Below are positions 1 through 45,034 of a stretch of 45,034 nt of DNA, one piece after another. Below the pieces are notes generated by a model that was not told the origin of the DNA, ran no database searches, and saw only the letters and a list, made by a program, of their open reading frames with translations. The stretch is taken from IMG/VR virus record IMGVR_UViG_3300045988_055078, positions 1 through 45,034 of that record. The stretch is one strand, 5' to 3'. Both the position numbers and the translations under genes were made by a program. This stretch comes from a virus. Numbering within the stretch: the stretch's first letter is position 1; each line of letters opens with the position of its first letter.

Positions 1-107
1 GGACAGGTCGGCCCCGGACAGGCTGGCCCTGGACAGGTCGGCCTCGGACAGTTTGGCCCCGATCAGTTTGGCCCCGAACAGTTTGGCCCCGATCAGTTTG
101 GCCCCGA
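1..107. repeat. Terminal direct overlap identical to 44928..45034 (circular-contig signature)
   Basis: First 107 nt and last 107 nt compared base by base and found identical. Confidence 0.9.
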
Positions 108-225
108 ACAGTTTGGCCCCGGACAGGTCGGCCTCGGACAGGTTGGCCTCGGACAGGTTGGCCCCGGACAGGTTGGCCCCGGACAGGTTGGCCCCGGACA
201 GGTTGGCCTCGGGCAGGTTGGCCTG
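1..225. repeat. 15-bp tandem coding repeats (pentapeptide array, left part)
   Basis: 15 consecutive 15-bp units such as GGACAGGTTGGCCCC and GATCAGTTTGGCCCC, read directly. Confidence 0.95.
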
Positions 226-324: not shown

Positions 325-514
325 CTTCCAGCATCCTTTCCAGATTCAGCAGCTCCTGCCGCAGCATGATGATCTTGCGTTTCAGGGCGGTCTTGCTGTG
401 GTTTTTATTCAGGTAATTTCCGTTATAGCCATCACCGCCATTCGCCAGATAAAGTGTAACGTTCTCCTTCAGGTCCTCAAACAAGAAGCTTACAAACTGT
501 AACTGTCTTTTCAA
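317..514 (-). CDS. Hypothetical small protein (65 aa)
   Basis: ORF in the same-strand gene chain. Its stop overlaps the pentapeptide gene start by 8 nt. No recognisable motif. Confidence 0.5.
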
Positions 515-1195
515 TTTTCAATTCCTCCCCACTGTTCCGCCATGGCCGCCGCGATGCCGGGGAATGTTTTCGCTCGATTTTTAGCTCTGTCTGTGGTAAA
601 CATACCTTTGTGCTGTTCTCCGTGTTTATGGCTGTAGCTTCCGCTTGGACACCATGTTGCTGTCGGCTCAACAATATTGGTCGGCTCCAACGGCTGGACA
701 CCACGCTCCCACAACAAGGTTTTTTTGCTAAAAGGGTGCCCGTATTGATAGGGCTGTATGGCTTGGGTTGGCTCTGGATACTCAAAGACTTTACTCGGCG
801 TCGGATTCTCAATCACAACTTTTTCACAATCCGCTTTCCAAATAGCTAAAAACAGCGCTTTGCCGCACAAGCCCTCATAATACCGCTTGATATTGAGCTT
901 GCCGCCCCTATACAAGTGCCGCGCTCCGGCGTTGCTGGTTTTGGTGCAGGGCGGGAAAGCAATAATCATATCCCACCGACCGACGTCATGCGCCTGCCCG
1001 TCCATGGTGGTCACCGTGCCTCCCTCGATGGCTATTAGCGCGTCGCCCAGAATATGCCATTCCGGATGGCCGCCGGATGGCCGCCGGATGGCCGCCGGAT
1101 GGCTCCTGGATGTCGCATGAGTAGGCTTCATGCCCTCGTTCCCGGAAAGCCTTGCACACGGTCTGCGATTCTTCGCAGGCTATCAAAACTCGCAT
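511..1195 (-). CDS. Phage-type DNA (cytosine-5) methyltransferase, frame broken inside an 11-bp tandem repeat (N-part 986..1195, C-part 511..1131)
   Basis: N-part MRVLIACEESQTVCKAFRERGHEAYSCDIQ. C-part carries DMIIAFPPCT (PC catalytic motif), VVIENP (ENV-like motif), QPYQYGHPFSKKTLLW and TFPGIAAAMAEQWG. The two parts are in different frames and join in the repeat at 1062..1103. Confidence 0.75.
1062..1103. repeat. 11-bp tandem repeat CCGGATGGCCG, 3 perfect copies plus 9 nt of a fourth
   Basis: Read directly. It sits exactly at the frame junction of the methyltransferase. Confidence 0.95.
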
Positions 1196-1657: not shown

Positions 1658-2494
1658 TTATAATCCCAATTTCTGCCGCATTCCCGCCCATGCGTCCGCT
1701 GCACCGGCTCTTCTGCGGCTCTTCCCGGTGACCTGGATAGGCAGACACCGCTCGATTAGGCGGTCATAGATTCGCTGCTTGGCAATGTCCTGCTGCTGCC
1801 CCAGTTCGGCGGTGGACAGGTTGGTGGTCACCACCATGGGCACCCCCGCCGTGTAGCGGGCATTTACGACCTTGTAGACCATCTCGTCCATGTAATCGGT
1901 TTTGCGTTCGATCCCGAGATCGTCCAGCACGAGCAGATCGTACTTGCACAGGTGGGCCAAATACTCCGCTTTGTCCTCAGCTGACCACAGCTCGTCCGAA
2001 ATCGTAGCGAAGTTTGTCATTTTTCCCCGGAAACCGGCATCAATTATGGCATTTGCGATGCACCCGGCAAGAAACGTTTTTCCGGTGCCGACCGGTCCGT
2101 AAAGCAGCAAGCCCGTCCCGTTTCGCAAGTTCTCGGAAAAGTTATCCGCATACTTCCAGCAAGCCTGAACAATCTTCTGGTCACCGGTTTTGTCATCGGC
2201 CGCGAATGTGGCGTTTATCAGATTTTCAAACCCACGGAAGCATATTTCGCGCCTTCTCTTGATTTCTGAACGCTTTTCCTGATTTTTCTGGACATCGTAC
2301 TCCGTTGGGCAATTACACCAGCACTTGACTTTCATGGGCATTGCACCCGGGAATGGTGGGTTGATGATTGTTTCGCGTTTTCCACCGCAGATCGTGCAGT
2401 GCTTCAGGCCGTCTTCCGCCAGATACTCGGTGTCCGGATCGGCGGCTCGTGCTGCCCTTTCCGCAAGTGCTTCCAACACTCCTCCGTCATTCAC
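1658..2494 (-). CDS. DnaC/IstB-like AAA+ helicase loader with N-terminal Cys-rich region
   Basis: Walker A LLLYGPVGTGKTFLAGCIAN and Walker B DLLVLDDLG. N-terminal CTICGG..CWCNC. ATGA overlap with the upstream organizer gene. Confidence 0.85.
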   Translation of the reverse strand: MNDGGVLEALAERAARAADPDTEYLAEDGLKHCTICGGKRETIINPPFPGAMPMKVKCWCNCPTEYDVQKNQEKRSEIKRRREICFRGFENLINATFAADDKTGDQKIVQACWKYADNFSENLRNGTGLLLYGPVGTGKTFLAGCIANAIIDAGFRGKMTNFATISDELWSAEDKAEYLAHLCKYDLLVLDDLGIERKTDYMDEMVYKVVNARYTAGVPMVVTTNLSTAELGQQQDIAKQRIYDRLIERCLPIQVTGKSRRRAGAADAWAGMRQKLGL

Positions 2495-3366
2495 GTCTTA
2501 CCCTCCATTGCTGCCATAAAGGCCAGGTCTTCCTCGCTTACCGGTGCATTAGCCGCACCTTTGTGGCTGTTTTTGTCTCCGTTGTAGTTTCCATCAAGCA
2601 CTTTGGGGAAGTTATTCGGGCGGATGAACCAGTCAAACGTGATGTTAAAGCCTTCTTTTGTTCGCCCCATCAGGAAATCTGACGTCCGGACATTCTCAAT
2701 GGCCTTCAGAATGGCGTCAAGACCGTAGTCGTTTACGCGTTTTTTCAGGTAAGTACTGCGTTGCGAGTTTTCAACAATGCGTGTAATTTTACAAACACCA
2801 AGGGAATTCCATGCGTCTGTCACGATTTCTCGCACGGTTTTTTTCTTTTTCCCATCGGAATCCAAACTCGACCGTGCCACGGAGTGGGACGAACTGGACT
2901 CCGTTAGGAGGCCAGTTAAATCTAACCTATCCTTACCTAACCTATCCTTACCTAACCTAACCTGTGTATCCAAATTGGATACAGACTGTATACACTCTGT
3001 ATCCAGATTGGATACAAGAGCCTTGTCTTGTGTGTATGTGCCATCCTTTGCAATACTCAATTGCGCTTTTTCGTCCACACATTTGGTCGGTTTATATCGG
3101 TCCTTCTGGATGTAATTATGCAGCCGCCAATGTCGGATTACGATAACGCCGCTGTCAAAGAGAATGACATACTTTTTCGTAAGCAAAATCTTGAGATCGT
3201 CGTTTGTTGCCCCGATTTGACGCATAATGCTTCGCGGATTGTTGACGAATCCGTCATCATCGGCCAGCATTCCAAGCGTAAAATACAGGATTCTGGAGCT
3301 GGTAGGCATATCCAGGAAATCGTCGGATAAGACAATCGACTTGGAAAACATTCTCCGATCAGCCAT
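2491..3366 (-). CDS. Phage replisome organizer / DnaD-like replication initiator
   Basis: N-terminus MADRRMFSKSIVLSDDFLDMP..LYFTLGMLADDDGFV and C-terminus ..DFLMGRTKEGFNITFDWFIRPNNFPKVLDGNY are typical of replisome-organizer families. Start at 3366 chosen for its spacing from GGAGAGGGG. Confidence 0.8.
   Translation of the reverse strand: MADRRMFSKSIVLSDDFLDMPTSSRILYFTLGMLADDDGFVNNPRSIMRQIGATNDDLKILLTKKYVILFDSGVIVIRHWRLHNYIQKDRYKPTKCVDEKAQLSIAKDGTYTQDKALVSNLDTECIQSVSNLDTQVRLGKDRLGKDRLDLTGLLTESSSSHSVARSSLDSDGKKKKTVREIVTDAWNSLGVCKITRIVENSQRSTYLKKRVNDYGLDAILKAIENVRTSDFLMGRTKEGFNITFDWFIRPNNFPKVLDGNYNGDKNSHKGAANAPVSEEDLAFMAAMEGKT
2926..3016. repeat. Iteron cluster inside the organizer gene (candidate phage replication origin)
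   Basis: Two perfect 15-bp tandem copies of CCTATCCTTACCTAA (2926-2955). Two 19-bp inverted repeats TGTATCCA-N3-TGGATACA at 2965-2983 and 2998-3016, 33 bp apart. Palindrome TGTATACA between them. Confidence 0.6.
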
Positions 3367-3781
3367 CCGGTCCATCCCCCTCTCCGGAAAGCCGGACGAT
3401 GACGCAAGGTCGGGTTCCGTACCGTTTGATGACGGTCAAATCGGTGACCGCCGCATCGTCCTTGTAGGCAATTCCGTTAAGCGAATCAAGGACAATCTTT
3501 GCGATATTGTCCAGATCAGGCTTCACCATCGGCAAAAGGCACCCATCAGCCGCCGTTTCACGTTTTTTCTTGCTCCATGAGTGCGGGATCGGGAAAACGG
3601 CAACAATGCTTGCAGAAATCGGCCCGTCAAACACGGTTCCGTGCGCTTCGGCGTGGTAAGCCCATGCCACCATCTTCTCGTAATCCCGGGTTTTGGCTGG
3701 CGTGTAGGCGTAGCCGTTCTTTGTGAATCTCGGGCGCTCCTTGCCTTGCGGTGCGCCGGGGATCGTGAACTCAACAGTCAT
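3359..3781 (-). CDS. rusA: RusA-family Holliday junction resolvase
   Basis: MTVEFTIPGAPQGKERPRF.. and KPDLDNIAKIVLDSLNGIAYKDD are RusA motifs. Start is at 3781, or at 3820 if extended. Confidence 0.85.
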   Translation of the reverse strand: MTVEFTIPGAPQGKERPRFTKNGYAYTPAKTRDYEKMVAWAYHAEAHGTVFDGPISASIVAVFPIPHSWSKKKRETAADGCLLPMVKPDLDNIAKIVLDSLNGIAYKDDAAVTDLTVIKRYGTRPCVIVRLSGEGDGPDG

Positions 3782-44461: not shown

Positions 44462-45034
44462 TGTACTCTACTGCCTCCTGTCGGTTGATGAAAAAGTGGA
44501 TTCCTGCGGCGCATTCCAGGAAACGGTTATCGCAGAAATCCGGGACGGAAACGGTCTCTCCGACCCTGTATAAAAACTCCTCGTCTCTGTTGCTTGTTAC
44601 GACATCAACATCAGCCTTAGTCCCATCCGGATTCTGGATTTCCAATACGATAGCCTTATCGCACCGGCACTTCCTGCCAGAGGACGAGCTGCGTTTTGCA
44701 TCTTCTGGGATCAACAGCTTTACGATATATCCACGGGCTTTTTTCCAGCCGGTAAAAGAGCCGTTATCCGGGCAAGCCATCGGGACATACGGGATGTTTT
44801 TTGCCCTGGACAGGTCGGCCCTGGACAGGCTGGCCCTGGACAGGTCGGCCCTGGACAGGTTGGCCCCGATCAGTTTGGCCCCGGACAGGCTGGCCCTGGA
44901 CAGGTCGGCCTCGGACAGGTTGGCCCTGGACAGGTCGGCCCCGGACAGGCTGGCCCTGGACAGGTCGGCCTCGGACAGTTTGGCCCCGATCAGTTTGGCC
45001 CCGAACAGTTTGGCCCCGATCAGTTTGGCCCCGA
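44454..45034 (-). CDS. Pentapeptide-repeat protein, C-terminal part (repeats plus ~108-aa non-repeat domain)
   Basis: The frame of ORF 44454..44780 stays open upstream through the repeat array to the window end. The C-terminal domain ends ..[19 protein letters not shown]. Confidence 0.85.
44808..45034. repeat. 15-bp tandem coding repeats (pentapeptide array, right part)
   Basis: 15 units read directly. The last 107 bp duplicate positions 1..107. Confidence 0.95.

Follow-up and report, generated by a model that had tools for sequence, protein, structure and literature searches.

The stretch of DNA analysed here (the window; IMG/VR record IMGVR_UViG_3300045988_055078, 45,034 bp) is a complete circular phage genome. 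Its first and last 107 bases are identical, indicating that the genome is circular, with 44,927 bp of unique sequence and a GC content of 52%. The phage is a temperate-type gut phage. A short gene resembling C5-cytosine methyltransferase genes lies on the minus strand, and its reading frame is broken at a perfect 11-nt tandem repeat (Table 1). In the gene tables of related contigs, the neighbors of the methylase gene form a lambdoid replication and recombination module (YqaJ, RecT, SSB, RusA and a DnaC-like protein); none of the adjacent genes is for restriction or specificity. The ORF upstream has a longest form of 168 aa; gene callers take a later start that gives 145 aa. Downstream of the methylase gene in the window are a 65-aa ORF and a pentapeptide-repeat gene.

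Table 1. Features of the disrupted methyltransferase gene in the window.
Feature	Position	Strand	Basis
Whole disrupted gene, short (~220 aa) orphan C5-cytosine-methyltransferase-like protein, phrog_757	511..1195	-	ORFs and one-unit rebuild
N-terminal frame, 69 aa, MRVLIACEESQ...EPSGGHPAAIRRPSGMAYS...	986..1195	-	ORF list
C-terminal frame, 206 aa, ...SGGHPEWHILGD...PPCT...ENP...; form reported by gene callers	511..1131	-	ORF list
Perfect 11-nt tandem repeat, frameshift site; coding strand GCCATCCGG followed by 3 x CGGCCATCCGG	1062..1103		Tandem Repeats Finder, frame count
Poly-G site of most close relatives (GAG GGG GGG CAR); here interrupted, GAG GGA GGC ACG (GAGGGAGGCACG)	1015..1026	-	Codon comparison
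PPCT, motif IV-like Pro-Cys, putative catalytic cysteine	943..954	-	P75, C76 and T77 invariant in alignment A1
ENP, motif VI-like (ENV in canonical C5-methyltransferases)	802..810	-	E122, N123 and P124 invariant in alignment A1

We found that the number of repeat units determines whether the gene is open. Tandem Repeats Finder reported the array with a period of 11, 3.8 copies, 100% matches and the unit CCGGATGGCCG. The array is 42 nt long, spans codons 31-45 and contains three exact tandem units; only four sites elsewhere in the 45 kb window match the unit with one mismatch. A perfect 42-nt array with an 11-nt period is not a chance occurrence and is therefore a product of duplication. We rebuilt the gene with 0-7 full units and obtained a single ORF only with 1, 4 or 7 units (220, 231 and 242 aa, respectively). 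The gene in the window, with three units, is thus out of frame. The preliminary description of this DNA had placed the split between the two methylase frames within an 11-bp repeat present 3.8 times, and had counted one or four full copies as in frame and three as out of frame. The ORFs, Tandem Repeats Finder and the rebuilt genes agree with this account, and seven copies are in frame as well.

The two parts of the gene were otherwise well preserved. In tblastn searches, segments 1-37 and 24-220 of the protein fell in different frames. Both frames are open and overlap by 146 nt. In the 69-aa ORF, residues 1-37 are authentic (beta1, the motif I region and beta2) and the remainder is an out-of-frame tail. 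The ORF outside the repeat is intact, with no decay, indicating that inactivation was recent or is reversible. Each 11-nt unit contains CCGG and GGCC, so that expansion adds both kinds of site inside the methylase gene itself; CCGG and GGCC are common targets of C5-methyltransferases and restriction enzymes.

Judged by its predicted fold and motifs, the protein is an atypical, C5-methyltransferase-like putative enzyme. The one-unit reconstruction (220 aa) matched phrog_757, 'DNA methyltransferase' (E 9e-53). This family is large (>8000 close matches; 4899 clusters at 50% identity) and occurs in many cultured phages, where it is annotated as DNA or SAM-dependent methyltransferase. In tblastn searches against annotated phages, members were found in Vibrio, Flavobacterium, Cellulophaga and Clostridium scindens phages; identity was at most 53%, and these searches gave no close annotated relative or host. 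A blastn search against annotated phages gave one weak, unannotated match. There were no matches to Pfam (including PF00145) or NCBIfam models at E<=0.1, and matches to USP6 at E 0.46 were taken as noise. Sequence and profile searches of the PDB gave spurious matches only.

An AF2 model of a 94%-identical homologue (P0001; pLDDT 77, pTM 0.77) was compared with the PDB using Foldseek, and the top 50 matches were all C5-methyltransferases. The best was M.HaeIII (1dct; E 1.9e-5, TM 0.46), and others included DNMT1, DNMT3A/B and 3g7u, the enzyme of prophage CP-933R. In an alignment of 30 homologues (A1), the Pro-Cys and E-N-P residues at the places of motifs IV and VI were invariant. The protein thus resembles M.HaeIII, M.HhaI and DNMT enzymes in predicted fold and in these motifs. 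It differs from them in being only ~220 aa long, in having no sequence-level match to PF00145, NCBIfam models or PDB entries, and in the absence of the FxGxG of motif I; in its place the N-terminus has VLIACEESQ, of which A6 to Q11 do not vary in A1. The earlier assignment of the gene as a C5 DNA methyltransferase is borne out by fold and motifs, though no Pfam model matches, and we infer enzymatic activity for the intact form.

We found that the repeat lies in a part of the protein in which length appears to be constrained. In the P0001 model, the tract corresponds to the loop that joins beta2 (residues 23-28) to beta3 (residues 40-42) in the cofactor-binding half. S33, G34, W39, H40 and I41 are invariant in A1. 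Among 95 family representatives (50% clustering) that could be parsed reliably, the loop was 11 residues long in 91 and 9-10 residues long in four; it was never longer. A fourth unit would add 11 residues and double the length of the loop. The preliminary description had proposed that gain of a single unit would switch the gene on. Such a gain does restore the frame, but it lengthens a loop that never exceeds 11 residues in the representatives, and a four-unit "on" protein is doubtful on these sequence comparisons. One of the two in-frame states nearest to the present allele, that with four units, thus probably encodes a defective protein, so that the one safe on state would be a single unit, which is two steps away from the allele in the window.

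Expansion of the repeat was specific to this lineage. All of the 120 best homologous proteins had a single motif of the S-G-G-H-P-E-W-H type with no insertion. Related viral loci had one copy in 79 of the 79 cases in which the site was found (80 loci surveyed). These loci, like the closest protein relatives, typically encode the motif as GAGCCGTCCGGCGGGCATCCnGArTGG, an imperfect repeat. Comparison of homologues for repeat number, a check that the preliminary description had put forward, therefore went against a recurrent switch at this site: none of the ~200 homologues examined had an expanded repeat. A pattern for at least 2.8 copies had no match in IMG/VR or in metagenome contigs. The lone match among genome contigs was in a Streptomyces contig and was taken as a chance match in GC-rich DNA.

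We found one phage with what appears to be the unexpanded form. The exact one-unit 29-mer was absent from IMG/VR. A gapped pattern identified a single contig, L216 (ERZ1034998 NODE_192, assembled with SPAdes), in which an uninterrupted ORF of 222 aa carries GAGCCATCCGGCGGCCATCCGGAATGG, corresponding to one unit. At its start, this methyltransferase ORF is identical to the window gene at 188 of 200 nt. L216 shares the proto-repeat but has a single unit and an unbroken gene, indicating that the tract in the window arose by expansion. Beyond its first 200 nt, the L216 gene (reverse-complement positions 95-763) has a strongly diverged middle (PPCTYL..., VENPVP) and a C-terminal stretch of ~18 residues that differs at one position. 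The mosaic structure of the gene suggests recombination within it between subfamilies.

The disrupted allele was the common one in assembled sequences. The exact 206-aa product, which fixes the number of units at three, was recorded on 25 contigs, and was present in all 22 that were read. For three of these contigs the sample was shown; all were gut metagenomes of a Fiji cohort (FijiCOMP, PRJNA217052; runs SRR2187451, SRR2187452 and SRR2187971), a single cohort with much strain sharing, so that the 25 contigs may represent few independent lineages. Two contigs, L082 and L083, were 99.98-100% identical to the window and had three units. We looked up the exact predicted products of alleles with 0 to 10 units among ~15 billion proteins. 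Matches were confined to the products of three units and of two units (for the latter, a 49-aa N-terminal and a 164-aa C-terminal protein). Products of 0, 1, 4, 5, 6, 7, 9 and 10 units were absent, and exact look-ups of the 1-, 4- and 7-unit products thus found no on allele of the window phage. The cluster representative of the 164-aa fragment is a PAPS reductase unrelated to it in sequence, which we took as a clustering artefact. The recorded alleles of the window phage were off in 26 of 26 assemblies (25 with three units and one with two); these are consensus alleles of assembled contigs, and samples may contain minority on alleles. The 65-aa neighboring protein is recorded on 26 contigs, but it and the methylase product come from different source sets, so the agreement with 25 + 1 was not taken as a closed count.

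The two-unit allele came from a single contig (L084; ERZ27229757 k119_159493), which is also off. This contig is 45,023 bp long, equal to the window minus 11, and starts at the same point as the window. Over 11,195 aligned bases there were no mismatches, and the one gap was an 11-nt unit. Taken at face value, this contig hints that mutation is far more frequent in the tract than around it. However, by the arithmetic of de Bruijn graphs, an assembler taking the shortest path through the tract at k<=31 would lose exactly one unit. The two-unit contig has the length of such a collapse product and so does not prove heterogeneity. The tract may have been collapsed by the assembler, or the contig may come from assembling the same material again.

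Based on these results, we lean towards the notion that the window carries a null allele made by slippage, fixed or at most slowly switching, and revertible in principle. This lineage encodes the conserved P-S-G-G-H-P as CCA TCC GGC GGC CAT CCG G, a proto-repeat in which two synonymous codon choices (CCA and GGC) create a 9-nt direct repeat at 11-nt spacing. Replication slippage would then have added two 11-nt units, taking one full unit to three (+22 nt), so that the first 37 codons and the 183 that follow no longer share a frame. The 69-aa product is without the catalytic P-C and ENP motifs, and the 206-aa ORF is without the invariant N-terminal cofactor-binding segment. Neither fragment would be expected to work, so the phage most likely makes no active enzyme, and this null allele would be the consensus state in every assembly found. 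Loss of two units, or of one from the two-unit form, would restore the wild-type protein, and the mechanism would be the same as that of simple-sequence-repeat phase variation. The repeat, its frames, their recurrence across assemblies, a relative's one-unit allele of ancestral type, the fold and the motifs are observed; we infer the inactivity of the split form, its reversibility and any benefit of the off state. Against a simple null allele, the two-unit form with no mismatches over 11.2 kb hints at a mutation rate well above background, as a true switch would have.

We found a different mutable tract in the relatives of this gene. Forty nucleotides downstream of the 11-nt repeat, the codons for E-G-G-Q contain a run of seven G residues (G7) in most close relatives (L002-L081, L087-L206 and L217-L221 were compared at this site). 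In 72 unique intact genes, GGG was used at Gly51 in 85% and at Gly52 in 93%, compared with 0-51% at 14 other conserved Gly columns. This bias indicates that the homopolymer is maintained. The tract is lost both in the window and in L216, which has AAG GGC GGC ACG at the site.

The length of the poly-G tract varied among contigs. We sampled 120 IMG/VR contigs using a pattern that allows G6-G11. In this sample 89 contigs were in frame at the tract (83 of them G7), and 29 of 118 (~25%) were out of frame (G6 in 9, G8 in 15, G9 in 3, G10 in 1 and G7 in 1). In the non-G7 alleles that were checked, the reading frame was open both before and after the tract. Two pairs of contigs had identical 620-nt gene flanks and different tracts (L076 with G6 and L078 with G8; L019 with G7 and L072 with G9), and several further pairs differed by two mismatches or fewer. 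The same 170-aa downstream product was found behind G6 in three contigs and behind G8 in two, in independent ENA and Logan assemblies from five samples. From these sequence comparisons, the poly-G tract in the relatives has the signature of a contingency locus and resembles a true on/off switch. In the literature searched, this family of gut-phage methyltransferases was nowhere described as phase-variable. One homologue (P0045) is out of frame from about residue 18 to residue 50 and is back in the frame of the family from the poly-G site onwards; perhaps a second frameshift in the G tract compensates for a first one, or the sequence contains an error.

The poly-G tract bears on whether the 11-nt tract might itself be a selected, reversible on/off switch that yields mixed methylated and unmethylated progeny, perhaps in place of the lost poly-G switch. 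We regard this as possible and rather unlikely. The repeat has the form expected of a switch: its unit is not a multiple of 3 and occurs more than three times, it is placed towards the 5' end of the ORF, and the gene is otherwise intact. One-, two- and three-unit states have all been seen at the orthologous site. Relatives keep the G tract by codon choice, with about a quarter of contigs out of frame there, and the window lineage and L216 both have the proto-repeat and no poly-G. It is plausible that the family's retention of the tract reflects selection for switchability, and the 11-nt repeat could be a functional replacement. On the other hand, every one of the 26 recorded alleles is off, compared with ~75% on at the poly-G tract of relatives, and the sole length variant within the lineage is the contig that is just as long as a collapse during assembly would make it. 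No other homologue examined has the repeat, the nearest upward in-frame state probably gives a defective protein, and three to four units make a short tract; for a tetranucleotide tract of three units, the switching rate is only 0.5-2 x 10^-6 (PMC5909438).

A broader form of the same idea is that the family is a phage contingency gene by virtue of poly-G, and that the window lineage lost the G tract and convergently evolved an 11-nt switch of unprecedented kind 40 nt upstream. Switching would then hedge between restriction of unmethylated DNA and Type IV cutting of methylated DNA, and would give virions of mixed epigenotype. We consider this conjunction improbable.

A survey of bacterial mod genes took repeats of at least three units, with unit lengths of 1-9 nt (PMC5909438). 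The tract in the window (11 nt x 3.8, 100% identity) is within an ORF, has a unit that is not a multiple of 3 and has at least three units, as simple-sequence repeats of this kind do. Its unit is longer than any in that survey, which agrees with the earlier remark that the unit is unusually long. Two other features of contingency loci were not found here. On and off alleles did not occur together in the lineage, the one-unit allele being present only in the mosaic gene of a different phage (L216). The 11-nt repeat did not recur in orthologues (120 proteins and 79 viral loci), whereas the poly-G tract does recur in relatives.

The preliminary description had likened the locus to the phasevarions of bacteria. 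As in those systems (Type III mod and Type I hsdM/hsdS; Atack et al. 2018, PMC5909438), a non-triplet repeat is found towards the 5' end of a DNA-methyltransferase ORF, the frame is open or closed according to the number of copies, and the mechanism would be slipped-strand mispairing. However, phasevarion enzymes are N6-adenine methyltransferases of Type III or Type I systems on bacterial chromosomes, with units of 1-9 nt (mostly 1-5) often present in 10-40 copies, and for these, switching has been measured and regulons have been shown. The gene in the window is an orphan, C5-like and phage-borne, with 3.8 copies of an 11-nt unit and all sampled alleles off. The likeness does not extend to the enzyme, which is not a Type III or Type I mod or hsd product, and by the usual definition the locus is not a phasevarion. 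The slippage logic itself fared better: expansion from a one-unit proto-repeat (L216) and a two-unit version in an otherwise identical contig are in keeping with it, but fast switching is unproven.

Contingency loci have also been described in phages, including poly-G tracts in receptor-binding-protein genes of Fletchervirus (Sorensen 2021), homopolymers in T2/T4 and poly-G in a Bordetella phage methylase (bioRxiv 10.1101/2025.10.21.683753). These are likewise hypermutable repeats in phage ORFs that give reversible frameshifts and mixed progeny, and the poly-G tract of the relatives would be exactly such a locus. The phage loci known so far are homopolymers and mostly belong to genes with which virulent phages recognize their hosts, whereas the tract in the window has an 11-nt unit and belongs to a gene for DNA modification in a gut phage of temperate type. 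Ordinary frameshift pseudogenes that arise by tandem duplication at short direct repeats resemble the window tract in being lineage-specific, perfectly homogeneous, fixed in the sampled population and absent from homologues. The window tract differs from them in that it expanded twice, a second length variant is recorded, the remaining ORF is undecayed and the family keeps a mutable tract elsewhere.

We found it very unlikely that the off allele is an artefact of assembly or sequencing that hides an in-frame copy number and an intact gene. Multi-k de Bruijn assemblers can collapse tandem repeats, and just as k<=31 drops exactly one unit, a true four-unit tract would by the same arithmetic collapse to three at k 32-42. 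However, the 42-nt tract is shorter than both the reads and the final k-mers (119-127), which makes an artefact very unlikely. The identical three-unit sequence and product appeared on 25 contigs, from separate runs, and the SPAdes contig L216 provides an assembler-independent one-unit form in another phage.

It is scarcely credible that the gene works as it is, by programmed +1/-2 ribosomal frameshifting in the repeat or by complementation between the 69-aa and 206-aa fragments as a split methyltransferase: both frames are open over the 146-nt overlap and natural split C5-methyltransferases such as M.AquI exist, but inspection of the sequence revealed no typical slippery site or stimulatory element, a frameshifted product would carry ~11 extra residues in a length-invariant loop, the fragments would divide the cofactor-binding half between beta2 and beta3, and no other family member is so organized.

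Phase-variable methyltransferases are well known in bacterial pathogens, and contingency loci of phages are only beginning to be described (bioRxiv 10.1101/2025.10.21.683753). If the poly-G signal in this family is true, modification of their own DNA would be switched stochastically by many temperate phages of the gut, which matters for host range, for evasion of restriction and for the epigenetics of prophages in the human gut. The poly-G switch in the relatives is the more valuable lead. The 11-nt tract is itself a modest one, a lineage-specific knockout by slippage as we read it, and would illustrate either a switch born from synonymous changes in a conserved peptide or slippage simply killing a gene.

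Some further features of these genomes were observed. In poly-G relatives, the end of the methyltransferase gene overlaps by 4 nt with the next gene, which is of the PAPS-reductase family (PF01507, 290 aa; L217 1710-2582, L219 800-1672). This arrangement hints at a two-gene DNA-modification module. At the ends of the window (1-223 and 44803-45033) there is a 15-nt tandem repeat, GGACAGGTTGGCCCC, with ~15 copies at each end. The two arrays are parts of one pentapeptide-repeat gene (PF00805, 265 aa in L082) cut by the contig break. Sister contigs vary in length from 44.8 to 45.3 kb. A second 15-nt tandem repeat, CTAACCTATCCTTAC, is present in 2.8 copies at 2922-2963, in frame within a 294-aa minus-strand ORF (2491..3375). 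It encodes LGKDR-LGKDR, and its length could vary without a frameshift.
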